64,000 bases of DNA, taken from contig QPGO01000009.1 of assembly GCA_008632985.1 (NCBI GenBank), positions 558,001 to 622,000 of the forward strand, given 5' to 3'. The position numbers and the translations under genes are program-made. Within the stretch, counting starts at the first letter, position 1. The number at the start of each line of letters is the position of its first letter. Positions 2,630 through 46,874 of this stretch are shown here, one piece after another. The notes under the pieces are model-generated. The model saw only the letters and a list, made by a program, of their open reading frames with translations. It was not told the origin of the DNA and searched no databases. The stretch comes from Psammoneis japonica (Eukaryota).

Positions 2630-5600
2630 TTGGTTCCTCCTTTGTGGTAGGAACTCTGGACACGAAGTGAGGAGGTGTGGAACCCGGGCTGGTTTGGATT
2701 GCCATGCGCGCGAGCATCAAATTTTAGAGCTTTGATCTTTACTTGCCACCAATCATTTTTTAAAAAATTCGCACGCTTAAATGATGGGTTCGCAATTGAT
2801 TAATGTGCGACGCAATTCTACATTGATGTTTTAACATTATGTCAAAAAATGGCGATTTAATTCTTGCATTCGTGTGTGGACATGTCATAAGAAGAGACGT
2901 GGGTTTCCCCTTTTTGATAATTCTGGTGTGATCGTTCTATGGCAGATGATAAGAGAACTGTCCTAACGTTGTGCATCACTGGTTGCTGAGTGTGTCTGTC
3001 ATTGCAATAATGTGCTGACATCGATTTGTTAGATTAGACCCTTTGTTTTCTATCGGTTGTTGCCGGGCACGCTTGCAAGCCCGCGTGTGAAGCCTGGAAC
3101 ATTTTCCAAAAGGTAGAAATAATTCCCACATGCAGCATCAAAATGTTCCATTTGTCAATTGGACTGCAAAATGTCATCACACTGTTCGTTGGTGAAGCAC
3201 GCGACACTTCTTCCTTCCATCAACTGGAGCAGGGCGTTGCACCCGTCCGGCAGTCTGCACAGACTTAAATCTCTCTTCAGCGGTTGCCGAAGATGCAGAC
3301 CATTTCTGGTCTTGACCCTGGAGAGCATGACACATGCCCAGTTTTGTGCACAGCTCCAGCTAGGTACAAACACATTGTCGACACCGCTTCCTTGAAGCTT
3401 GTGTCCTGTGGTTGCATTGTTTGTCATGAATGGCAATTGGGTTGCTTTCAGTCCGAGCGTGTGTTTCTCTTTTTCCTCAGCTGTCATCTGTTGGGTTGGG
3501 TCCTTTGAACAGGCTTTGAAAGTGGAAGACTTGGGCTTGAGCGAAAAGGTGGGTGGATCGATGCTTTTGTTGCCATGCTTGAGTTCTACATGATCCACCT
3601 GGGATGCCTGGCATTAGAATTGCGATGTTTGTGTTACATGTCAGCTTGGATCTGCTGATTGCAGGGCACGATGCATTCTGGAAAGCATCGCATTTTCTCC
3701 TCTTGGGGACAATTTCTTTGACGCATCTATGACGGAATGAGCCATCCCAAGAGAACCACTTAATTTTTGCNNNNNNNNNNNNNNNNNNNNNNNNNNNNNN
3801 NNNNNNNNNNNNNNNNNNNNNNNNNNNNNNNNNNNNNNNNNNNNNNNNNNNNNNNNNNNNNNNNNNNNNNNNNNNNNNNNNNNNNNNNNNNNNNNNNNNN
3901 NNNNNNNNNNNNNNNNNNNNNNNNNNNNNNNNNNNNNNNNNNNNNNNNNNNNNNNNNNNNNNNNNNNNNNNNNNNNNNNNNNNNNNNNNNNNNNNNNNNN
4001 NNNNNNNNNNNNNNNNNNNNNNNNNNNNNNNNNNNNNNNNNNNNNNNNNNNNNNNNNNNNNNNNNNNNNNNNNNNNNNNNNNNNNNNNNNNNNNNNNNNN
4101 NNNNNNNNNNNNNNNNNNNNNNNNNNNNNNNNNNNNNNNNNNNNNNNNNNNNNNNNNNNNNNNNNNNNNNNNNNNNNNNNNNNNNNNNNNNNNNNNNNNN
4201 NNNNNNNNNNNNNNNNNNNNNNNNNNNNNNNNNNNNNNNNNNNNNNNNNNNNNNNNNNNNNNNNNNNNNNNNNNNNNNNNNNNNNTCTGTGATGGACAGT
4301 CGAGTGTAATCCTCGCCACATGTCAACCCAGTTGTGCAGATCCGACTGGTCAGTTTGGATGGTGTTCTTTTACCATCACGCCTGAAATCTCTGTTGTCAG
4401 AATGCAGATTGTCTCTTGCTGTGTTTGTGTCTTCAAACCATGCCTGAATGTGACCGTGTGCCGAGAGTCTACCTTGTTCTTCCACTGCAGCTATGAAAGC
4501 GGAGGGTCTCCCCATGTAGAATTCAAAATCTTCTCTGGGTGAATTCCTTTTTAAGTCCCATCCTGTCACTTCTTCTATGACGATTTCCAATGACATTTCG
4601 AGTGCAAAAGCGGTGACACCCGGGTGCTCCACACGAAGCTCGTTTCTTGCCCCCAGCCTTTTCGGTCAATTCTTCATCCAACATTTCTGTCACATCTCTG
4701 CCTTTGTCGATGAGCATGTCCGCATAAATTTGAACTAAAAAGGAATTGGCATCATAGGGGCTTTGTCGTTGAAAATGCTCCAGGTTGTCCAAAGTGGTGT
4801 TGGCAGGTTTCAGCATTTCTTCTCATTTTTTTTGCTGCTTCATTTGCATGTGGAATAGATGCCAACACCACATCCACTGCACTTAAGAAACGATGTCCCA
4901 ATGCGCAATTCCTGCGTTCACCAGTCTGTCTGTCATGTGTGGCACGGTCGACGTCGTCTTGTGTCAGTTCATTTGAGAATTGTCTGGCTTGATTTTTGTC
5001 TCTTACTTTCCATCCAGCACTGTGCACCATTCGTTGCTTCACAGTCAGATTGCACAGGGTCAGAACAAAGAGTTGCTTGTGGAAATGGGGCTGAGAAATG
5101 CGGGCCAAGTGATCTGCGCAATGTGCCAGATTTGCACAGTCGGCGAGACTCCCGTCTTCTTTCATTCTTGTTTCATCAATGCCGCCATGCCCACAAGGAA
5201 ATTGCAGCAAGCAAGCATTTGCCAGGTTGTTGTCCTTAAAGTCACTGACTGATTCTTTCAAAAGATCAGCTTTGAATTCAATGTCAAAACCGCTTGCAGC
5301 TGCATCGTGCACCAAGTCTTTGAAGCTGTCTAAATTACGTTGTCCACCAGTTGTTGAAGAAACGGTGCCATCGGGGAAACAAACACTGCAGGACTCCGTG
5401 GTTTCAATGTTTGCATTTTCGCTTTCGTCCAAACTGCCATTGTCCACTAAAACTGGATTCTGCAAATCACTTCGCACTTCCTCTAGATCGATGTCTTGAT
5501 TCATCCAATTCTCGTGGTGATGGACAAGCCATTCTAGTGCTCTCATTACATGGTGAGTCCTGATTTTGTTCTTTTGTCTGGCCATTCGCCTTTGCTCTGG

Positions 5601-7099: not shown

Positions 7100-7699
7100 T
7101 TCAACGGTCGACGGACGTTCCTACCATTTTTCATTTCTTTTCCTCAGGAATTAAAAAAAAAATCCCTAGTGAGATTCCGCCGCCGAAATCAAAATTTCAA
7201 AAAATGAAAAAAACCTTGAACACATAACATCAACGAGAGGAGTCTAGTCACCGAGACGCGAATAAAAAGCGAATCCGCAATCATCATCCACGTCAACCAA
7301 TCGCGGGAACAAAATACCCATTATTTTATTCTTTTCGAGTCCAAGAACGAGGCGCTTTTTCATTCTACAAAGTAAATCGATTGTCCAATCAGTTGAGACA
7401 TACATTTAGTACCTTATTAGTTTTCAAAAAGGTGAGTGATGGGAATAGTAGCGATTGCAAGAGTCACCTGCCTTGAGTCGGACGAAAACTGAGTTGTTCG
7501 TGAGCGGTCGGAAGAAAGCAATAGTGGTTCTATAGCGTCAAGTGAGATGTTGCTCTGCACCGTCCATGGAAGAACCAAAAGTCTACATTGTGAACACAGG
7601 CATCGCTCGGATTTGTTGGTTGCTTAGCCTAATTCTTCGTTTGGTTGCTTTTTTGTGCTCCTTGCTCCCAGAGATTTTTTTCCAGTAACAGCTAAGAAT

Positions 7700-8845
7700 A
7701 TGACTACTTCAAAGTTTCGGATTGTTCAAGTATGGATTGCTATGATTTTCTTCCTCGGGGCGATTCACTGGCATTTTCTGGATAACGTTAATGACCTTGT
7801 TGCGCAGGCGGAACAGCATGAGAAAGAAGAATCAAAAGAAATTTGTGCCGGTTGGGATACAAACATGGATGCATGGTGGACTCACCATCCCGACTACGAA
7901 GTCTCACACGAGAACGAGACTGGCTATTGCTTCTCACCCATAACGGACAAGAGAAAGGCTAAATTCTTTCGCCATCTTTACCAAGTTCAATACAAAAGCA
8001 ATTGCTCCAATGCGCGAACAATAAATATGGCGTCGAATGGCTGGGGTGCAACCTTCAATATGGTCGACGAGGGCCTTCTCTACGCATACGAAAATAACCA
8101 GCCAATCGCAGTATATCCAACCAAGGGACGGTGGCACTATGCCGCTAAAAAGGATGCTAGCAAGCCTGTTTGTAAACGCAAGGACATGTCGTGCTACTTT
8201 CTCAATGTAACATCCTGTCAAGCTAATCCAAACAAGATTGAAAACCTAAAACCCAAGGGGGACTTCACGGTGAATTCACACCATGGCCGTTGGAGTTACG
8301 AATATGCCACACGTGGTCAAACTTGGTTGAGACGAGAAGTGTACAAAATGACGGCCTCGACAAAGCTTGTTACGCCGTGCACTGTCATGCACGTTCGTCG
8401 GACAGATGTTCTGCTAGAGGGGAAAGAAAGAGGGAAGCACCGTAAATACCATGATATCACGGAGTATGTCCAGGGGGCTGGGAAGAACCTGACGGATAAT
8501 ATCTTTCTTCTCACGGACGATCAAGATGCCATAGAGGAAGCGACAACGGAGTTTCCTCAGTACAACTGGATGTTTCTGAATCGACCTCGAAACAGGGGAA
8601 TAGAGGGCGGTTTTGAAGGACATATCCCCTCCGACGATCCAAAGTTTGAGGTCGTAGTCATTCTCGCCACTCTTCTGTTAGTGAAGCATTGTGAGACGTT
8701 TGTATACGCAAGAAGCAGGTTCGCTACACAAATTCGAAGTAGCATGCCTGGTGCCAAGATGATCTATCTCGACGAGGGCAAGCAAATTTATTTCGATAAC
8801 TCTGTAAATGAGACTGCGATCCAGACAAAGTCACATCCTGGGTAG
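7700..8845 (+). CDS. GT23/FUT8-like alpha-fucosyltransferase, copy 1
   Basis: N-terminal TM anchor, MHVRRTD (FUT8 motif I VHVRRTD) and IFLLTDD; intact ORF, first ATG at 7700. Confidence 0.8.
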   Translation: MTTSKFRIVQVWIAMIFFLGAIHWHFLDNVNDLVAQAEQHEKEESKEICAGWDTNMDAWWTHHPDYEVSHENETGYCFSPITDKRKAKFFRHLYQVQYKSNCSNARTINMASNGWGATFNMVDEGLLYAYENNQPIAVYPTKGRWHYAAKKDASKPVCKRKDMSCYFLNVTSCQANPNKIENLKPKGDFTVNSHHGRWSYEYATRGQTWLRREVYKMTASTKLVTPCTVMHVRRTDVLLEGKERGKHRKYHDITEYVQGAGKNLTDNIFLLTDDQDAIEEATTEFPQYNWMFLNRPRNRGIEGGFEGHIPSDDPKFEVVVILATLLLVKHCETFVYARSRFATQIRSSMPGAKMIYLDEGKQIYFDNSVNETAIQTKSHPG

Positions 8846-11775: not shown

Positions 11776-12553
11776 TTTTTCAGACCAAGAGGAATGTCAT
11801 GGTTTTCATGCCTCACACCCTCTGTGAAGTTTCAACCTACACTGGGGCCTAATGTCCGTGTGACTTCGATGAGTGAGGCCCTTGCACATCCAAAACATGA
11901 TGTTTATGACACCGGCACAAATGTTGTGTGAGTGTGAGGTGCACGCATCTTCTCAATTCAACGGTCGACGTTCCTGCCATTTTTCCTTTATTTTCCTCAG
12001 GAATGTATACAGTAATATGAATATACAATATTAGTACTCGTGGAACAAAAAATGCAGAAATCAAAATTTCAAAAAATGAAAAAAACCGTCAACGCATCAA
12101 CGACACGACACGAATGAAAAGCGAATCAACCTCTATGTATGATACTGTAGCAACCAATCGCGGTAACAAAATACCCATTATTTTATTCTTTTCGAGTCCA
12201 AGAACGAGGCGCTTTCTCATTCTACAAAGTAAATCGATTGTCCAATCAGCTCAGAGTTACATTTAGTACCTTATAGGTTTTCAAAAAGGTGAGTGATGGG
12301 AATAGCAGCGATTGCAAGAGTCACCTGTCTTGAATCGGACGAAAACTGCGTTGTTCGTGAGCGGTCGGAAGAAAGCAATAGTGTCATAGCGTCAAGTGAG
12401 ATGGTTGCTCTGCACCGTCCGTGGAAGAACCAAAAGTCTACCTTGTGAACACAGGCATCGCTCGGGTTTGTTGGTTGCTTAGCCTAATTCTTCGTTTGGT
12501 TGCTTTTTGTGCTCCTTGCTCCCAGAGAATTTTTTTCAGCAACCGCTAAGAAT

Positions 12554-13708
12554 ATGACTGCTTCAAAGTTTCGGATTGTTCAAGTATGGATTGCTATGAT
12601 TTTCTTCCTCGGGGCGATTCACTGGCATTTTCTGGATAATAATGGATTCGTTAATGACCTTGTTGCGCAGGCGGAACAGCATGAGAAAGAAGAATCAAAA
12701 GAAATTTGTGCCGGTTGGGATACAAACATGGATGCATGGTGGACTCACCATCCCGACTACGAAGTCTCACACGAGAACGAGACTGGCTATTGCTTCTCAC
12801 TCATAACGGACAAGAGAAAGGCTGAATTCTTTCGCCATCTTTACCAAGTTCAATACAAAAGCAATTGCTCCAATGCGCGAACAGTAAAAATGGAGTCGAA
12901 CGGCTGGGGTGCAACCTTCAATATGGTCGACGAGGGCCTTCTCTACGCATACGAAAATAACCAGCCAATCGCAGTATATCCAACCAAGGGACGATGGCAC
13001 TATGCTGCCAAAAAGGATGCTAGCAAGCCTGTTTGTAAACGCAAGGACATGTCGTGCTACTTTCTCAATGTAACATCCTGTCAAGCTAATCCAAACAAGA
13101 TTGAAAACCTAAAACCCAAGGGGGACTTTACGGTGAATTCACACCATGGCCGTTGGAGTTACGAATATGCCACACGTGGTCAAACTTGGTTGAGACGAGA
13201 AGTGTACAAAATGACGGCCTCGACAAAGCTTGTTACGCCGTGCACTGTCATGCACGTTCGTCGGACAGATGTTCTGCTAGAGGGGAAAGAAAGAGGGAAG
13301 CACCGTAAATACCATGATATCACGGAGTATGTCCAGGGGGCTGGGAAGAACCTGACGGATAATATCTTTCTTCTCACGGACGATCAAAATGCCATAGAGG
13401 AAGCGACAACGGAGTTTCCTCAGTACAACTGGATGTTTCTGAATCGACCTCGAAACAGGGGAATAGAGGGCGGTTTTGAAGGACATATTCCCTCCGACGA
13501 TCCAAAGTTTGAGGTCGTAGTCATTCTCGCCACTCTTCTGTTAGTGAAGCATTGTGAGACGTTTGTATACGCAAGAAGCAGGTTCGCTACACAAATTCGA
13601 AGTAGCATGCCTGGTGCCAAGATGATCTATCTCGACGAGGGCAAGCAAATTTATTTCGATAACTCTGTAAATGAGACTGCGATCCAGACAAAGTCACATC
13701 CTGGGTAG
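12554..13708 (+). CDS. GT23/FUT8-like alpha-fucosyltransferase, copy 2
   Basis: Near-identical to copy 1, with a 9-bp in-frame insertion (NGF); intact. Confidence 0.8.
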   Translation: MTASKFRIVQVWIAMIFFLGAIHWHFLDNNGFVNDLVAQAEQHEKEESKEICAGWDTNMDAWWTHHPDYEVSHENETGYCFSLITDKRKAEFFRHLYQVQYKSNCSNARTVKMESNGWGATFNMVDEGLLYAYENNQPIAVYPTKGRWHYAAKKDASKPVCKRKDMSCYFLNVTSCQANPNKIENLKPKGDFTVNSHHGRWSYEYATRGQTWLRREVYKMTASTKLVTPCTVMHVRRTDVLLEGKERGKHRKYHDITEYVQGAGKNLTDNIFLLTDDQNAIEEATTEFPQYNWMFLNRPRNRGIEGGFEGHIPSDDPKFEVVVILATLLLVKHCETFVYARSRFATQIRSSMPGAKMIYLDEGKQIYFDNSVNETAIQTKSHPG

Positions 13709-16640: not shown

Positions 16641-17387
16641 GCTTTTTCAGACCGAGAGGAATGTCATGGTTTTCATGCCTCACACCCTCTGCGAAGTTTC
16701 AACCTACACTGGGGCCTAATGTCCGTGTGACTTCGATGAGTGAGGCCCTTGCACATCCAAAACATGATGTTTATGACACCGGCACAAATGTTGTGTGAGT
16801 GTGAGGTGCACGCATCTTCTCAATTCAACGGTCGACGTTCCTGCCATTTTTCCTTTATTTTCCTCAGGAATGTATACAGTAATATGAATATACAATATTA
16901 GTACTCGTGGAACCAAAAATGCAGAAATCAAAATTTCAAAAAATGAAAAAAACCGTCAACGGATCAACGACACGACACGAATGAAAAGCGAATCAGGTAA
17001 CAAAATACCCATTATTTTATTCTTTTCGAGTCCAAGAACGAGGCGCTTTCTCATTCTACGAAGTAAATCGATTGTCCAATCAGCTGAGAGTTACATTTAG
17101 TACCTTATAAGTTTTCAAAAAGGTGAGTGATGGGAATAGCAGCGATTGCAAGAGTCACCTGTCTTGCATCGGACGAAAACTGCGTTGTTCGTGAGCGGTC
17201 GGAAGAAAGCAATAGTGTTATAGCGTCAAGTGAGATGGTTGCTCTGCACCGTCCATGGAAGAACCAAAAGTCTACCTTGTGAACACAGGCATCGCTCGGG
17301 TTTGTTGGTTGCTTAGCCTAATTCTTCGTTTGGTTGCTTTTTGTGCTCCTTGCTCCCAGAGAATTTTTTTCAGCAACCGCTAAGAAT

Positions 17388-18530
17388 ATGACTGCTTCAA
17401 AGTTTCGGATTGTTCAAGTATGGATTGCTATGATTTTCTTCCTCGGGGCGATTCACTGGCATTTTCTGGATAACGTTAATGACCTTGTTGCGCAGGCGGA
17501 ACAGCATGAGAAAGAAGAATCAAAAGAAATTTGTGCCGGTTGGGATACAAACATGGATGCATGGTGGACTCACCATCCCGACTACGAAGTCTCACACGAG
17601 AACGAGACTGGCTATTGCTTCTCACTCATAACGGACAAGAGAAAGGCTGAATTCTTTCGCCATCTTTACCACGTTCAATACAAAAGCAATTGCTCCAATG
17701 CGCGAACAGTAAAAATGGCGTCGAACGGCTGGGGTGCAACCTTCAATATGGTCGACCAGGGCCTTCTCTACGCATACGAAAATAACCAGCCAATCGCAGT
17801 ATATCCAACCAAGGGACGATGGCACTATGCCGCTAAAAAGGATGCTAGCAAGCCTGTTTGTAAACGCAAGGACATGTCGTGCTACTTTCTCAATGTAACA
17901 TCCTGTCAAGCTAATCCAAACAAGATTGAAAACCTAAAACCCAAGGGGGACTTCACGGTGAATTCACACCATGGCCGTTGGAGTTACGAATATGCCACAC
18001 GTGGTCAAACTTGGTTGAGACGAGAAGTGTACAAAATGACGGCCTCGACAAAGCTTGTTACGCCGTGCACTGTCATGCACGTTCGTCGGACAGATGTTCT
18101 GCTAGAGAAAGAAAGAGGAAAGCACCGTATATACCATAATATCACGGAGTATGTCCAGGGAGCTGGGAAGAACCTAACGGATAATATCTTTCTTCTCACG
18201 GACGATCAAGATGCCATTGAGGAAGCGACAACGGAGTTTCCTCAGTACAACTGGATGTTTTTAAATCGACCTCGAAACAGGGGAATAGAGGGCGGTTTTG
18301 AAGGACATATCCCCTCCGACGATCCAAAGTTTGAGGTCGTAGTCATTCTCGCCACTCTTCAGTTAGTGAAGCATTGTGAGACGTTTGTATACGCAAGAAG
18401 CAGGTTCGCTACACAAATTCGAAGTAGCATGCCTGGTGCCAAGATGATCTATCTCGACGAGGGCAAGCAAATTTATTTCGATAACTCTGTAAACGAGACT
18501 GCGATCCAGACAAAGTCCTATCCTGGGTAG
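17388..18530 (+). CDS. GT23/FUT8-like alpha-fucosyltransferase, copy 3
   Basis: Near-identical to copies 1 and 2, with a one-codon deletion after LLE; intact. Confidence 0.8.
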   Translation: MTASKFRIVQVWIAMIFFLGAIHWHFLDNVNDLVAQAEQHEKEESKEICAGWDTNMDAWWTHHPDYEVSHENETGYCFSLITDKRKAEFFRHLYHVQYKSNCSNARTVKMASNGWGATFNMVDQGLLYAYENNQPIAVYPTKGRWHYAAKKDASKPVCKRKDMSCYFLNVTSCQANPNKIENLKPKGDFTVNSHHGRWSYEYATRGQTWLRREVYKMTASTKLVTPCTVMHVRRTDVLLEKERGKHRIYHNITEYVQGAGKNLTDNIFLLTDDQDAIEEATTEFPQYNWMFLNRPRNRGIEGGFEGHIPSDDPKFEVVVILATLQLVKHCETFVYARSRFATQIRSSMPGAKMIYLDEGKQIYFDNSVNETAIQTKSYPG

Positions 18531-39115: not shown

Positions 39116-41419
39116 TTGGCTGTCATGCTGCTGCTTGCATGTGAAGGGCTGGGGGTCCATTTTGTCAACAGCAGTGCTGTTTTGCCAATGGTCAATGTTT
39201 TGCCACATGCAATCTGAGGATGTTTTGAGAAGTGTTGTGATCCTGTTTGGACAGTTGCACAGAATCTTTTGTCCAGATTCTGCAGTTCTTTTGGGCTGCT
39301 CTGCAAGATTTTTGAGTTGATGCACACAAATGTCAAAAGCCAAGAAAAATTCAATGACATGCAAATGCATCAGAGACCAACATGAATTTGTCTTCCTTGT
39401 GAACCATGTTCTCCTGCCTGCTTGCACCTCACACATGCATTGTCAACACATGGCACAAGTTGCAGCACATGTGGAAGACCAGATCAAGCTCCAGCTTGCC
39501 ACAGAATGCAAGCCACATTGTTGCCAATCATTGAAGAAGCATTGAACATTTTGTTGCAACTCTTTGTTTGTGAAGATAATGAGATGCAGCCATTTGGCAA
39601 AGTGTCCAATTGATGATGCACAGCCACTCTGTCTCCAATTCTGAAGTCATTGATGGTGGGGGCACTTTGTCTGGCAAGCAACTTCTCCCAGCACCTGCAG
39701 CAGAATCAGCTCTGGCAGTGGCAGTTGCTGCTGACACAATCAGCCCAAGTGCCCTGCCCTTGTTGGAGCATGGTTCCCTGATCTCCAATTGCAGTTGGCT
39801 TCATTCTTGCATCAAATCTTCCAGCATGGCATGGGTCCACTCTCAAGTGTGTGATGCCAAAGGCCAACACATGTGCAAAGCATCACAATCAACACTTTTC
39901 TCTCACAGAAATTGGAGCCAAGGACAGGCCATTTGCCAGCTCTGCCCACAAAGCAAGAGCTTGTAAAGGACACAGTGCTGCAAGTGCTCCTTGCAAGAAT
40001 CTTTTGATTGCCAGCTGGGTTTCTGCAAGAGAGCAAAAGGTGTTGTTGGCTCTCTCAATCTTGTGGTTGTTTTGCTGCAGGAAATTCTGATCTTGTGATC
40101 TTCTGGGTCTTTGTCATTCCAGAAGACTTTGCCCTGTTGGCAAAAGATGTTGCACCATCCTCATCAGGTGTTGAGCTCTTCACCACCTCTGCACAGATCT
40201 GGGTTTTTGAGCTATCCCCAACATGTGCACCCATCTGAACAAGGGCCAAACAGCCAGAGGTGGCAGAACAAATGACTTCAGGCTCCAAACGTGGCAGGCA
40301 CAGAGACAAGGAACACCCTTGGACACCTGCCTCTGTTGTCTTTTTGCAGTGCATCTCTTGTTGTGACTCTGTTGAATTTCTTTTTCATGGCTAAGATGAG
40401 CCCCTCTTTGTGCTGTTTGCTTCAGCTGCCATGTCATTTGCCCCCCCCCCCCCCTGCTCTGATGCCACTCACTGTCATGACTTCTTGTCTCCACAAGGTC
40501 AGGAGCATCTTCATGAAAAAAAATGCCAAGAAGCCTTTGGCAAGGCTGCACTTGGCATTGTTGACAATGACTGTAACAGCACTGTGCTTGGGACAAAGCT
40601 CAAGCTCATGCTTTGATCTGAGAGGGAGATGAAGGTTTGCAGAGTGTCAAGCTCTGGAACACGGGTGCTGGTGGGCTTGGCACCAAGGAGTTTTGTAAAC
40701 TTCTTGGCAACCAAGCTTGCTCTTGGCAGCAGAGTCACCTGGTGGAGACCAACAACCTTGACCATGACATGCTTTTCTGCATCTAGAAAGATGACAGTAG
40801 ATCTGTGACATCCAAGCTCATTCTTGCTTTCCAACTTGAGCGGGTTTTTGACGTTGCAGCACAGCACCATGGACACATGGGTGGTCATCTCAAATTGGGT
40901 TGCACGTTCAATGACATCAAGAAGAAGTTTTACAATGTCACAGAGATGCTGGGTTTCTCACTCCCACTGCCACATGCTGGTTGCTGCACCCCTTGCAGCC
41001 AAACAACCAGAGTGCTGGAGAAGCCCCTTTCTTCAATGCCTCCAGCTGCTTTCCAATCAGCCAAGCCATGCACTCACCATGGGTGCAGGCTCTTGTTCTG
41101 GCGTGTTGTGTTTTTCTTGGCAGTGGTGCTTGGTCAGTGTGGGTTCTTCCTGTTGAGCAATTGTGTGCACTCACAGCTTGGGAGGTCTGCAATTAATTGT
41201 GTGTAAAATGTGTGGTGGGGTGGATGTGTTCAGGTGGTGGGGTGGGGGGAAATGCCTCGCAGCCAATCACGCACAAAATCTACGCTCTGCAGTCTGCAGT
41301 GGGGGGGAAATGCCTTGAGTGCAAAAACTGCCAACTGACTTCGATCGCCCCAGTTAGTCTACTGTACGTGACATTACATGAGATTCATCGGTCCCGCCCC
41401 ATGTCAACGGAATCCAAAA

Positions 41420-41760
41420 TTTTGAATTTGAACGAACAGACAGTGAAAACCACAATGGGCACATCGCAACAAATGCGACAAAGTCGAGATTTGCAACCCG
41501 ACATTATTTCCTGTGCAAGTTTCATGGAATGCCTGTCGAAAAGCACCGACCCCGATGCCTCCTTAACAACGCTGGACCTTTTGGAGCAAGCAACCGAAAT
41601 GTACAATCGCGCAACGAATGAAGAGCACATGCCGAATCTAAGAACGTTCACGATGGCTTTTCTGGTGTTGTCCAAGTGCCCACATCGTGTTGGTAACGTG
41701 GTCAAGGGGCACGAGAATTGTTGCAAAGACCAAACGACATGCACACAGAGACTTAGTCAG
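41420..41760 (+). pseudogene. pentatricopeptide-repeat (PPR) gene fragment
   Basis: LQPDIISCASFMECLSKS and MPNLRTFTMAFLVLSK are PPR-like; truncated. Confidence 0.55.
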
Positions 41761-42450
41761 CAAGGTTCAAGCTACCCGCATCACCTAAACAATTTGAGGT
41801 AAGTTCTGGTCCACAACCATGTGTTTTGCAATGAAAAGGAGATAGTCAGAATACTAAAACATCCGCCTTGGTTTAAGACTAACGACCACCCCTACGGTAG
41901 AAGTGCGCATGTGCGAGCTAGAAGTAGTACTCTACTAAGGTATTGTATAGAATTACAAGCGGACGTTTTAGGAACTCTGTTTTCTATTCCTTTTATTTGA
42001 GACGTGTTTTTATTGTCTCTCTAGAGAGGTATGATTTGTAGTTTTTTCATGGGAGCCTTGTAAAATTATTGCTCCCAACGAATGCTCTTTTCTCTTCCGT
42101 CAATGTTTCAACAACAAGCTTGACTTCCGAAGCGACACGACTTACATGATAGCAATGCGAGCCTGAATTAGAGTGTGGTCAATGAATTCTCTTTCGTCAA
42201 TGTTGCCTCTCTGTTTCAACGTGACGTCCGAAACGGCCTCGGCTTACAGTACTGCGAGCCTGAATTCTTGAGCAGTAAAAGCGAACCGACATGGTGCAAA
42301 CGTCAGAGAAAGCGCGTTCTCTATTAGATTGCAATGTTCTTGGACCGACTGTGTCATCAATATTCCGAGTACTAGCCTTCATATGGTCTGACATGGTCAC
42401 CGGATGTCATAACAAACACCTCTTCGGAAGGACTTGTTGGTGGAACAGGT

Positions 42451-43088
42451 GGGGGCATCTGGTGAGTTTTAGCTACTGCTTCGAGACTACCACACAGGTA
42501 GCCCTACTAGGCAACCCCACGACTGACGTAATGCCCCCCTTGGTGAAGACGTTGGCGAGTGTTGCGCTACTGCTTCGTGACTATCGGTAAAGGCTAAATG
42601 CCCGGTCCGCCGATGCCCTATTAGGTAGCCCCGTCTAACGTCCACCTTGCCTTTGCGGCAAAATTCGTTCTTCTCCCAACCAATGGATATGCGTGCGAGT
42701 TGATGTGCCACTGCTTCGTGACTATGAATAATTGACGAGAGGCTGAAGCCTTCACATCTACTCATGCCCTAATAGGTGGCCCCGCAATCTAACATTCCGG
42801 ACTGTGAATTCGTGTGCGAGTTCGCGTTACTGCTTCGAGTCTGGATAATTGACAAGAGGCCGTCTCGGGTTGCGAGACTGAGTGCCACGTCTATCCAAGT
42901 CCTAATGAGTAACCTCGCTTCCACGTTCACGCCGCCCCATGGCAGCAAAAGCCACAACAAGTCAAGTACGAGATTTTGCTACTGCTTCGGGTAGAGCAAT
43001 TGACAAGAGGCCGTCTCTTATTCCAACGTTGTTGGGAGACCGAGTGCCACGTCTGCTCAGTCCTAATGGGTAGCCTCGCATTGCTGCT
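42451..43088 (-). ncRNA. putative structured RNA: five tandem covarying hairpins with a conserved internal loop
   Basis: Units at 42462-42520, 42555-42634, 42695-42785, 42816-42918 and 42968-43079 share invariant ACTGCTTCG and GYCCTA, with compensatory stem changes. Most mismatches become G-U on the minus strand. Confidence 0.6.
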
Positions 43089-44979
43089 GTGCTTTTCAAA
43101 ACGTCCTTCTTGGTGAATCCAATCCCAAACCACAATCAGTACATCGCCTCGCCTTGAATATCCCAGACCGCCGTGCCGCAACCTAGACACGAGCACCTCA
43201 ACGTATTCGCTTCTTGCCCGCAACCACGGTGAACGATAATTCTGTCTCTGTGTACGTACAAGCAGGCGAGAGCGAGGTGAGTGGATGAAATACAAAAGAA
43301 AAAGTAACAACACGATACACGATTACGACAAGAACACACGTACCTTACTCTGCAACGACAAAGCCGGCAGCAAGCAGAACGCCCATGGCCACTGCAACGA
43401 GCGCCATGGTCAAAAGAGAAACACAATCAACTCCTCCATTTTACTGCCGTGTTGTTCGAGTTGATTGTCAGAATTATGAGCAAATCAAGAGCGAGCGGAA
43501 ATTCAGCATCGGATTGTTCGTGTACCAGAAGCACGTAAAGTCCACGGAGCCTCAGTCCTCGGTCTTCCACGACTCGTGTGCTCTCGGTGCCTGGCAGGTT
43601 TCGACAACTTATCCTCAAGTGGGATCAGATATTTTCAAAAGTGTCGGAACCGGTACTGGCATGCCGAATCTTCCAAAAACGAGCGGCAAATCGATCGCGA
43701 GCGTCATGGCATGGTGAAGTTTCTTGTTCTTTGATGGTCGCGCGTTGGTTAGTCCTCAGATCTTTGCGGACGCACATCAGACGTAGATTTCGAACATTTC
43801 AAAATTTATGAGCATGTATGTTATTTTGTTATTTTGTCTTGATGTCTTCCGGATGTTCCATTTCGCGGATGACAAAAATAAACGTTGCTGCATCGATCTT
43901 TACCGAGCTGTTCCATTGGGAAAGAGACTGGTGGTCCCGCGCAAACAGAATTCCATGTGGAAGGAGGTCCATGGCGCTGTGTGTTCGGGGATGGAGCCCA
44001 CGAAACGATTTGTCTTTGTCTCCAGTTCCTTCTGCTTCAAGATCGCACTTGGCCCAAAACAGCTCTTGTTTTCTGCTTTTCATGTTGCAAAAGATCTTTT
44101 TTCGACGGGATCTCTGGTGATGAGGAAAACCAACAAAGATTGCAGCAGACAAGCTGTGTCAGCAGCTGCTGTGGCATCGGATGCTTTTGGGCAATGTTCT
44201 CAAATCATTTGGTGGTTGCAATCGCCTGCCTGGTGTGGAGCGCCAGTTGCGCTCGCAGTTGTTTTCTGCTGGCAACTTGTCAGAGAGCATGCACACAGTC
44301 CATCTGGAGATGTTTGAGGACAACCTCATGTGTCAACCTTGTAAGTTTAGTGACTTCGTTGTCAAAATTTGGCAATGCTGCAAAGGTGATTGCATCAACG
44401 TCCAACCAAAAAAACATGCTGCAACAGTGTCTTCTCACCAAAGCAATCAGCAAATGATGTGACCACATTTGTCACAAAAAAATTGTCCACTGACTCTTCC
44501 TTGTCCAAGGCCAAGACAGCCATTTCCCCACAATGCAACAAACTTGCCACACAGGGCTTCTCTCAGCCTGCTCGCCATCTGTGGTGTCAGCGATCAGGTT
44601 TTCAAAAAGTGCACAACAAAAATCACATGGCTTTAGCCCAGCCAAATGACAAGTTGACAGAAAGACAATCTCACTCCAAAGATGCAACAGGACTCCTGCA
44701 AACTGGTGGCAAAAGTGACTCCCCCCAATCCTCCATCCTGCGGAAGATCCTAAAACTCATCTGGAGTCAAGACCACCCTCAAACATCCAGAGGTTTTGGC
44801 AGATGCCTGCCATGCAACTTTTTCTTTTGAAAAAATGCAAGGAATGGTGCTTCTTTGCATGATCTTGTGCTCAGCAACATGACAAGCAGACCTGCAGAAT
44901 TTCATGGTTCAATTGATGCTGTTCACATTGCAGCCAACCAACAAGCCAGCTGATCCCTGAGACAACGTTTTCACACATG

Positions 44980-45890
44980 AGGCTTCATTCCCATTGACAG
45001 CCAACAATGAGTTGCAAACTTGAACTGCTTTGGCAAGGAACTGAGAAACCAGATTGTTTTTGCTGTCCCAGAAAGAGCTTGCAGAAAAACAACAAGCTCA
45101 CAGTTTTGAGCTCTGCTTCACGCTTGCAATGTGAAATGAATGATGAAGCACCAGACTGGCACCAAAGCAAAATGTGTTTGTCATGCAAGATCATGTTGCC
45201 ATGTGCCTGCAAAAGCATTTTTCAACTCAAGAAGGATCCCAAAATGCAACATCTCAAAGGTGCTCTGAAACTGAGCCGGGAGCTTGGTTTCCTCCAGCAC
45301 AATGGCTTGTGTGAACAAGAACTCTCAACTCTGTGACTCAGTGTGACAGAGCTTTTTTTTTTTGATTGGTGTGGCTCTGAAGCCATGCCAGCTAATTGGA
45401 GATGATTTGCTTGACACGAGGCTTCATTCCCATTGACAGCCAACAATGAGTTGCAAACTTGAGCTGCTTTGGCAAGGAACTGAGAGACCAGATTGTTTTT
45501 GCTGTCCCAGAAAGGGCTTGCAGAAAAACAACAAGCTTGCAGTTCTGAGTTCTGCCTCATGCATGCAATGTGAAATGAACAACAAAACACCGGACTGGGG
45601 CAAAAGCATTTCTTCAACACAAGGATCCCAAAATGCAACACCAAAGGTGCTGTGAAGCTGAGCCGGAAGCTTGGTTTCCTCCAGCACAGTGGCTTTTGTG
45701 GACAAGAATTGTTGACTCTGTCATTCAGTGTGACAGAGGTGCTGTGAAGCTGAGCCAGAAGCTTGGTTTTCTCCAGCACAATGGCTTTTGTGGACAAGAA
45801 TTGTCAACTCTGTCATTCAGTGTGACAGAGCTTTTTTCCCATTTATGTGGCTCTGAAGCCATGCCAGCTGATTGGAGATGATTTGCTTGC
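44980..45890. repeat. tandem duplication of about 440 bp with a nested about 90-bp duplication
   Basis: GAGGCTTCATTCCCATTGACAGCCAACAATGAGTTGCAAACTTGA at 44980 and 45418; GGTGCTGTGAAGCTGAGCC at 45646 and 45738. Confidence 0.85.
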
Positions 45891-46874
45891 CAGAAGGTTC
45901 AAAGCTTCCAAAAGCCACCCGCACCACCTCAACAATTGACAAAAAGCTCCAGGTCACAACAGATGTGCACACCATTTTGCATTGCAAAGGAGACAGCCAC
46001 AACACTGCCACACATCCCTCTTGCTTTGTGGCTGATGACCACCTCCAAGCCCTCAAAGTGCATGTGTGCCAGCTGGAAGCAGGGCTGCAATGATGAACAA
46101 GTGCAAGTGGGTGTGTGGCAAAAACTGCTGGCACTCCAGAGAAACTGAGTTTGGCACTTGGACCAGGTCAGCAAATGCAACTTGAAGGCAGCTGTGGCTG
46201 GGAACAACAAAGAGTCAACCCCTCATTTCTTGTTGTTGTTTGCTGATGTTCTCATGGGAGAGTGTTCTTGTGTTCTGAGAAAGTGGTGCTCCCCACCACA
46301 ATTTCTCTTCAATGCAAGTTCAGCCCACTGCACCTTCAAACGGCCACCATGTCAAAATCTCACTGAGGTCTGTCAGGTTTTTGGCACACCCAAGGTCTCA
46401 ACTCACCTGCTGATGAATGACATGACAAGAAGCAAGACTGCTGTCTGCACCACCTTGCACAGCATTGCCAGAGAAGTTGTGCAGTTGAGACAGATGCAAG
46501 GAAACTGCCTTGTGCTCAGAAGTTGTGTTGCACCCAGTGTCTCTTCTGTCATGTTGCGCCAAAGTTCTGGAAGAGTGCCAGCTTTGCACATTTTGTCATG
46601 GTCTTTGAGGGCATGACATGGAGTGGTTCTCAAGGCAAAACAGTCCCTGCAGAAGGCAGAACTGTCAACAGCATTGTGCCACATCAATTTGCTGGGTGCC
46701 GTGGCTCACAACAACAGAGTTGAAGCTGAAACAATCCACCCTTCTTGCTGCTTGGTGCAAAAGACTCAAAAACATGGAGACCATCATGCCAGAAAAGTGC
46801 TTGTGTCTCTTTTGGCCAAGAGTTGCTGACATCTGAAAAGGAGCTTTGGTGCTTCTTGGAACAGAAAACTTGAA

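Follow-up and report, generated by a model that had tools for sequence, protein, structure and literature searches.

A dispersed repeat carrying five tandem hairpin units with a loop-E-like internal loop: a credible candidate RNA module, new and structured, from a diatom

The locus described here lies in a 64-kb window (the whole stretch of 64,000 nucleotides that was analysed; all positions are given on its plus strand), within an island at 41258-44254 which retains TA and CG dinucleotides between two domains depleted of both. The frequency of CG is normal over 41258-44254 and that of TA between about 41281 and 43901, and in the flanks the observed/expected ratio is 0.00-0.16 for TA and mostly 0.00-0.26 for CG, with one bin at 0.32. 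The unmutated island of 41.8-43.8 kb in the initial annotation is real, but wider than it was drawn there. At its left edge there is an open reading frame (ORF) fragment on the plus strand (41401-41799) that resembles pentatricopeptide repeat (PPR) proteins, with language-model feature scores of 0.95-0.97 to diatom clusters, several of them PPR-bearing, and Pfam gave nothing above chance for seven ORFs of the island, including this one. The fragment is reported as context; the annotated absence of a convincing ORF holds for the array, but not without this qualification for the island. Another element of the context is a repeat piece of about 215 bp (41762-41976, plus strand), which has a TA/CG-mutated paralogue at 45902-46126 (146 identical positions, 39 transitions, 23 transversions and 24 gaps in 232 columns). 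It was the only paralogue found when the 64-kb window was searched for decayed copies by transition-tolerant Smith-Waterman alignment with shuffled controls: there was no decayed copy of the array (best score 49, shuffles 42-49). A separate search with the mutated flanks gave no paralogue in the window.

The island holds an array of five hairpin units within 42451-43090. On the plus strand each of them carries the invariant nonamer ACTGCTTCG, starting at 42475, 42569, 42710, 42829 and 42981, and, after a gap of 19 to 72 nt, the motif CCTANTRRG, starting at 42503, 42617, 42768, 42901 and 43062. The pattern ACTGCTTCGNG has five matches in the 64-kb window, where 0.11 would be expected and none of 100 shuffles reached five; together with the 3' motif, as a two-part pattern, it found all five units against an expectation of 0.00 (three with the short gap and three with the long gap, unit 3 in both). 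The motif starts and this excess confirm the five-unit array at the place where it had been annotated. A covariance model was built from the five units and run on the whole 64-kb window with its filters off; it matched only these five units, at 54.5 to 106.9 bits, and the best score after them was 10.2 bits.

All units are read here on the minus strand. Unit 1 (42451-42538) is the shortest module, with a core at 42462-42520, an 8-bp basal stem and a 7-bp inner hairpin closed by a UGUGU loop; the covariance model matched 42456-42526 with 54.5 bits. Unit 2 (42548-42640) has its core at 42555-42634 and a 6-bp basal stem (model match 42549-42640, 80.7 bits). The core of unit 3 (42695-42785; match 42689-42791, 98.8 bits) is framed by GCGGG and CUCGC, has the second stem GCCAC/GUGGC, and contains in its inner arm an extra module which is common to units 3, 4 and 5. 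The core of unit 4 (42816-42918; match 42810-42924, 106.9 bits), with the second stem GUUAC/GUAAC, has a long inner arm with the conserved segments GCCUCUUGUCAAUU and AGACGUGGCACUC. In unit 5 (core 42968-43079; match 42962-43085, 99.2 bits) the basal pairing is looser and reaches out to 42941-43088. Spacers of 30-60 nt separate the unit cores. Identity among the units is 43-72% of aligned columns, and unit 5 is nearest to unit 4 (72%).

Other candidate features around the array were rejected. Two 97-nt direct repeats at 42075-42270 (CCGAAGCG / CCGAAACG, GCGAGCC), considered as inverted relatives of the units, folded no better than shuffles and were unmatched by the covariance model. About 0.5 pairs such as the 14-nt inverted repeat around the array (42151-42164 / 43072-43085) are, by our estimate, expected by chance. 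For an intronic position of the array, behind a small minus-strand ORF (43405-43343) followed by GTAAGG, no downstream exon was found.

Minimum free energy folds and the alignment gave one layout common to all five units on the minus strand, in agreement with the consensus of the initial annotation. An outer stem GCGRG/CUCGC is followed by a second stem of five base pairs, GYYAC/GURRC, and between the two the 3' strand carries a bulge of 5-7 nt (UAAAA, GCAACA, ACAUCAA, GCGAA and AAAAU in units 1 to 5), which is rich in A (17 of 28 letters) and stands five base pairs below an asymmetric internal loop. This loop has YYANUA on its 5' strand and GAAGCA on its 3' strand; above it come a closing G-C pair, a one-base bulge, a stem of three base pairs and a variable hairpin of 19 to 72 nt. 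The second stems that had been quoted for the plus strand are all present, namely GCTAC/GTAGC (units 2 and 5), GCCAC/GTGGC (unit 3) and GTTAC/GTAAC (unit 4), and that of unit 1, GCTAC/GCAAC, pairs on the minus strand only, as GUUGC/GUAGC. Own basal stems had been assigned to units 1, 2, 4 and 5; they are clear in unit 1 (GGGGGCAT/ATGCCCCC) and unit 2 (GACGTT/AACGTC) but looser in units 4 and 5, and unit 3 has one too.

Pairing was counted in the MAFFT alignment of the five minus-strand units (alignment A2), in which 15 consensus pairs, i.e. 75 cells, were named. Standard pairs occupy 71 of the 75 cells (94.7%), and when the 3' partners were slid by 1-3 columns the pairing fell to 28-63%. Both partners have changed in three compensated pairs, from C-G to U-A at 10-125 and at 15-113, and from U-A to C-G at 16-112. 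The column-shuffle control was moderately beaten, with 21 of 500 shuffles reaching the observed values, a modest margin that is due to having only five sequences and many invariant columns. RNAalifold, run without a supplied structure, recovered both outer helices and the inner helix. The folding z-scores of single units are modest (-0.33 to -2.61). The inner arms, 19 to 72 nt long, cannot be aligned among the units and each closes end to end; their z-scores on the minus strand against 1000 shuffles are -4.85, -1.58, -3.58, -2.22 and -1.19 for units 1 to 5, with no shuffle as stable in unit 1 and three in unit 3.

Taken by themselves, the conserved helices make a thin case, in which the annotated covariation of the stems is real but amounts to three pairs among five paralogues. 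The stronger argument is the design of the module as it appears in the alignment: a run of nine invariant columns, CGAAGCAGU, and A.UAGG opposite to it have been kept despite an overall identity of 43-72%, and the adjacent stems vary and yet stay complementary. It should be emphasized that the structural evidence comes entirely from five paralogues of one locus, which are not independent of each other.

The two strands differ in how well they pair. Read on the minus strand, twelve consensus cells hold G.U or U.G, each of which would become A.C if the plus strand were read, whereas a single non-pair of the minus strand, an A.C in unit 2, turns into G.U on the plus strand; the recurrent A-C mismatches that had been said to become G-U on the minus strand were found as described. 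Consensus cells are paired in 71 of 75 cases on the minus strand versus 60 of 75 on the plus strand, RNAalifold gave -12.09 kcal/mol (22 pairs) versus -6.95 kcal/mol (18 pairs), the inner-arm z-score is better on the minus strand in each of the five units, and it is on this strand that the bulge is rich in A. Units 4 and 5 fold about equally on the plus strand (-31.2 and -36.1 kcal/mol, versus -30.5 and -33.9 kcal/mol on the minus strand), so that the strand call rests mainly on units 1-3. Among the variants in the source organism's contigs, those at 42596 and 42598 lie in the apical loop and that at 42703 in the bulge, and those at 42915 and at 42548 (the latter in run X3) change A-U to G.U on the minus strand; one minority variant, 42708 C>T, produces A.C on the minus and G.U on the plus strand. 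The minus strand is favoured, but not proven, as the RNA sense.

The internal loop has the letters A-N-U-A (columns 21-24) opposite G-A-A (columns 104-106) in all five units, closed by G25-C103, and the bulged position N is G, A, U, U and U in units 1 to 5, the loop strand thus reading AGUA in unit 1 and AAUA in unit 2. The loop-E core has been described as a stack of a sheared A-G, a trans-Hoogsteen U-A and a parallel A-A pair, in some cases with G or C bulged out between the U-A and the A-A pairs; most loop-E motifs are docking sites for protein or RNA, and the motif is also present in the hairpin ribozyme's loop B (PMC2879506). By its letters the loop of the array fits the loop-E/S-turn core as given in the passages of that source, and in this respect the likeness to loop E noted in the initial annotation is borne out in five of the five units. 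With G, A or U as the bulged base it would be looser than the classical motif, for which these passages name G or C (PMC2879506). The sheared A.G, trans-Hoogsteen U.A and parallel A.A pairs would accordingly be predicted for the array from the letters of the loop.

The array could not be assigned to a known family by the initial annotation, and the subsequent searches agree with this. No Rfam family reached its gathering score in the whole 64-kb window, and at permissive thresholds only chance-level matches appeared in or beside the array (Yar_2 with 16 bits, mir-224 with 15.5 bits). In the metagenome scan the short-gap form of the two-part pattern found 12 loci, none with complementary pentamers, which are chance matches, scoring at most 18.3 bits in the covariance model against 54.5-106.9 bits for the true units; viral contigs gave no match with either the short-gap or the long-gap pattern. 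In a marine sediment metagenome run a 235-nt contig covers units 1-2 with four differences. As the scans returned no relatives outside the source organism, there is no cross-species covariation to draw upon. Literature searches directed at diatoms brought up no description of such an array, which is not proof that none is in print. Apart from the universal ones, scarcely any structured non-coding RNAs have been described in diatoms.

Several known classes were considered individually and rejected. ARAGORN found no tRNA gene and no cloverleaf in the 64 kb, which speaks against a tRNA or a tRNA-derived SINE. Box C/D RNAs carry UGAUGA and CUGA boxes, and a K-turn has tandem sheared G.A pairs beside a 3-nt bulge. 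Between 42401 and 43150 both CUGAUGA and UGAUGA are absent from both strands, which speaks against a box C/D RNA, and on the strand facing GAA the letters before the helix are UAG rather than GA, so that by its letters the loop is not a K-turn. Box H/ACA guides have a single-stranded ACA or H box immediately after the basal stem on its 3' side, some 14-16 nt from the pocket top, and their pockets differ. In the array one unit of the five (unit 4) has ACA right after its outer stem, and the loop is identical in all five; the sole match of the H/ACA model (16.3 bits) lies outside the array and is at chance level. As for polymerase III genes, letters resembling boxes A and B match only 6-7 of 9 positions of the consensus, judged by eye, and runs of four T follow only two of the five units on the minus strand. 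A MITE or foldback transposon, which has conserved terminal inverted repeats around a variable interior and target-site duplications at its flanks, was rejected too, because the array shows the reverse arrangement: the outermost stems differ among the units, and the conserved parts are two internal strands that are not complementary to each other.

The region 41900-43400 was compared with contigs from the two DNA runs of the source organism, and the array stretch proved to belong to a dispersed repeat family, some paralogues of which have decayed. Contigs of run X1, 53 in number, match it at 80-100% identity (6 at 99% or above, 17 at 95-99%, 17 at 90-95% and 13 under 90%), distinct contigs overlap at one and the same place (4 over 42703, 5 over 42323), and the loose ends of contigs are TA- and CG-decayed versions of unit 1. 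A long paralogous contig skips 42455-42656, exactly units 1-2, showing that the modules are gained and lost as cassettes. The depths in X1, 450-580 for near-identical short contigs and 35-63 for long contigs with diverged copies, would fit roughly ten near-identical copies, although contig depths are not copy numbers. Membership in a family with decayed paralogues means that the fresh composition may only reflect youth, and "unmutated" may describe a young copy rather than a protected one. The step from an unmutated island to a functional one, which the initial annotation suggested, is weakened by the related copies at 80-99% identity and by the decayed paralogues of unit 1. Selection may act for a mobile element rather than for the host, or may have ceased; the array may be either a host gene or cargo of the repeat.

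The reading put forward here, tentatively and as a plausible rather than a probable one, is that the units offer one RNA-binding protein a series of docking sites, repeated along a minus-strand transcript that is non-coding or untranslated. The five paralogous modules would have stems that merely hold one conserved asymmetric loop in place; the protein would read the core, YYANUA-G on the 5' side and C-GAAGCA on the 3' side, as a loop-E/S-turn platform, the stems and the A-rich bulge would set the geometry, and the variable arms would be tolerated. The array could then act as a multivalent binding site, like repeated hairpins in untranslated regions, carried by ORF-less sequence that belongs to a small repeat family of a diatom-like genome. 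Such a multivalent protein-binding RNA was one of the initial proposals, and the design of the module, with a constant loop and varying, compensated stems, suits it. The data show the recurrence of the motifs, the common fold, the strand bias, the constancy of the loop, the cassette-like behaviour of the modules and their place in a repeat family, and we infer transcription, the non-canonical pairs, binding of the protein and an effect on the transcript or on the locus.

There is another explanation, in which the array is a cis element of a non-autonomous mobile element and its hairpins are recognised on a single-stranded intermediate, either RNA (for packaging or recruitment of reverse transcriptase) or single-stranded DNA of the rolling-circle type, so that selection would work for the element and not for the host. 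We consider this rather unlikely. It agrees with the 53 contigs of X1 on 41900-43400, up to four or five of which overlap one place, with the decayed versions of unit 1 among the contig ends, with the mutated paralogue of a part of the island 4 kb away, with the lack of an ORF of a known family in the island, and with the fact that G.T wobbles are tolerated in DNA too. On the other hand, the surroundings of the island showed neither terminal inverted or long terminal repeats nor target duplications or poly-A, a second copy of the array is absent from the 64 kb even with transitions allowed, homology does not end sharply at the array in contigs of the source organism, and five diverged modules correspond to no known design of a terminus. 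Moreover, as an RNA motif the loop-E core depends in part on contacts of the 2'-OH groups.

The array might also be a functionless relic, a tandemly duplicated hairpin unit in which residual similarity is combined with chance complementarity. The small number of sequences and compensated pairs, the 21 of 500 shuffles, the modest z-scores of the single units and the paralogues elsewhere that have been left to decay all fit such a relic. Neutral decay to 43-72% identity, however, should not spare nine invariant loop letters beside stems that vary and remain complementary, and neither five unalignable inner arms which all close end to end nor a one-sided excess of G.U pairs, 12 to 1, would be expected from it; this explanation is regarded as unlikely.

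A polycistronic cluster of separately processed small RNAs, one per hairpin (of the snoRNA, miRNA-like or polymerase III kind), would account for the closed hairpin and own basal stem of each unit and for the 30-60-nt spacers, and clusters of this kind are common for eukaryotic small RNAs. We find it quite doubtful, in view of the chance-level scores of snoRNA, miRNA and snRNA families of Rfam, the missing UGAUGA box, the single unit with ACA after its outer stem and the lack of tRNA-like genes. The internal loop is the same in all five units, unlike guide pockets, which differ between snoRNAs, and with a 6 x 7 loop halfway along the conserved arm the units do not resemble substrates of Dicer.

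The new self-cleaving ribozyme proposed in the initial annotation is not supported and is hardly credible: tandem structured units in repeat DNA often hold hammerhead, twister and similar ribozymes, and AUUA/GAA, which we take to equal the loop-E part of loop B in the hairpin ribozyme, stands in both cases in an asymmetric internal loop between two helices, with U at the bulged position in loop B, but no Rfam ribozyme family (hammerhead, hairpin, twister, twister-sister, pistol, hatchet or HDV-like) was matched at E up to 10, CUGAUGA is lacking, loop A and a four-way or two-way partner domain are absent from the array, the 5' strand of the loop falls short of that of loop B by two letters and has no position for its catalytic adenine, and units 1-2 are plain hairpins with a single internal loop, thus offering no second loop, junction or pseudoknot for an active site.

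Returning to the docking-site reading, one of the nearest likenesses is to 5S rRNA. The eukaryotic 5S arm consists of a 5-bp helix, two letters, ANUA, a closing pair, a hairpin, a closing pair, GAA, two or three letters and a 5-bp helix. The units share with this helix V - loop E - helix IV arm the A-N-U-A opposite G-A-A, the apical G-C closure and, towards the base, two unpaired or wobble positions followed by a 5-bp helix; unit 1, with 44 nt between the 5-bp stems, is also close to the 5S arm in length. Unlike in 5S rRNA, the bulged base of the array is not fixed as G, its 3' strand has three letters (GCA) instead of two, the other 5S domains are missing and there are five tandem copies. The 5S model (RF00001) had no match at gathering score in the 64 kb and none at E up to 10 in 41800-43400 and 42445-42650, and because no Rfam model matches, 5S included, the resemblance is one of design without membership.

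A precedent for 5S mimicry in another eukaryotic transcript is P5SM of the plant TFIIIA pre-mRNA, in which part of the 5S fold has been copied into the transcript and binds L5, as described in passages of PMC3378873. P5SM mimics L2/P2 and P3c/L3, exists as a single copy in a suicide exon of a coding gene, and is known from land plants only. The array resembles the loop-E arm alone, five times, in ORF-less DNA. The iron-responsive elements, five of which stand in the 3' untranslated region of the transferrin receptor as tandem regulatory hairpins, are likewise diverged hairpins in a row with one unpaired motif kept and covarying stems, bound multivalently by one protein; unlike the array, their motif is a C bulge with a CAGUGN apical loop, and the array is multi-copy with no adjoining coding gene identified. 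In the T-box Specifier Loop, according to the passages of PMC2879506, a loop-E apical half is followed by unpaired letters after GAA, which the S-turn turns outward for pairing; the corresponding letters of the array are the invariant GCA, of which G107 probably pairs with column 20. T-boxes are bacterial, the 3' strand of the array is one letter shorter, units 1-2 have neither the K-turn that lies below the Specifier Loop nor the distal platform above it, and the T-box leader (RF00230) had no Rfam match in the window or the array.

These analogies would allow a much bolder extension, which we consider very improbable: a multi-copy non-coding transcript with five 5S-arm mimics might serve as a decoy or scaffold for TFIIIA, uL18/L5 or uL5/L11, or might present GCA to an RNA in a T-box-like manner, and might keep the locus free of TpA/CpG hypermutation. 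If it were true, the array would represent an undescribed class of eukaryotic RNA.

In this work an array with no Rfam family and no relatives in the scans that were run was found in a repeat copy that escaped hypermutation, and its features make it credible as a candidate RNA module, new and structured, in diatoms. Should the array instead be a cis signal of a mobile element, it would be a new recognition module for diatom repeats. Whether the island was spared as an expressed one or is merely young bears on the target choice of the rare TA-erasing mutation process by which silent DNA is marked in this genome. If a loop-E platform is indeed kept while its stems drift, the array would give a major group of marine algae a protein-docking RNA that is compact and open to testing.

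The array of five loop-E-like hairpin units, folded as minus-strand RNA (42451-43090), is adjoined by two 97-nt direct repeats (42075-42270), which terminate in GCGAGCCTGAATT and contain CCGAAGCG / CCGAAACG. These repeats recall halves of the array units in opposite orientation. They were not among the matches of the covariance model that had been built from the five units and run over the whole window, and their folding was no better than that of shuffled sequences. A linker motif, AAYGYCC..CTTGGTGAA (repeat families D7 and D17), recurs on the + strand after units 1, 2 and 5 of the array (42530-42547, 42637-42649 and 43100-43117, respectively), the last of these positions being upstream of unit 5 when the minus strand is read, and it was found again (41858-41870) within a 215-bp repeat piece of the island, the TA/CG-retaining region around the array. 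The linker could be a repeat-unit extension or a processing signal.

A short, signal-peptide-like ORF on the minus strand, MALVAVAMGVLLAAGFVVAE (43343-43405), terminates at GTAAGG, a candidate 5' splice site that would lie upstream of the hairpin units; a downstream exon for this ORF was looked for and not found. The ORF fragment at 41401-41799 (+) is PPR-like by language-model features, with scores of 0.95-0.97 to diatom clusters, several of them PPR-bearing, and the Pfam search gave no match for it. Since its start falls within the mutated, TA/CG-depleted domain, this fragment is probably a gene scrap.

In the left part of the window, ORF reading revealed three near-identical + strand ORFs of about 402-406 aa (7628-8845, 12488-13708 and 17322-18530), spaced at a 4.85-kb period: a gene-bearing unit is triplicated here in tandem. 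The run of N at about 3540-4290, an assembly gap, appears as X in three reading frames.

The mutated right-hand domain contains tandem repeats of about 390-480 bp (44975-45900) with pairwise identities of 77-90%. The 215-bp piece is present in two copies, unmutated at 41762-41976 and TA/CG-mutated at 45902-46126. Of the 232 columns in their alignment, 146 are identical, 39 differ by a transition, 23 differ by a transversion and 24 are gapped. These two copies represent a small before/after pair for hypermutation.
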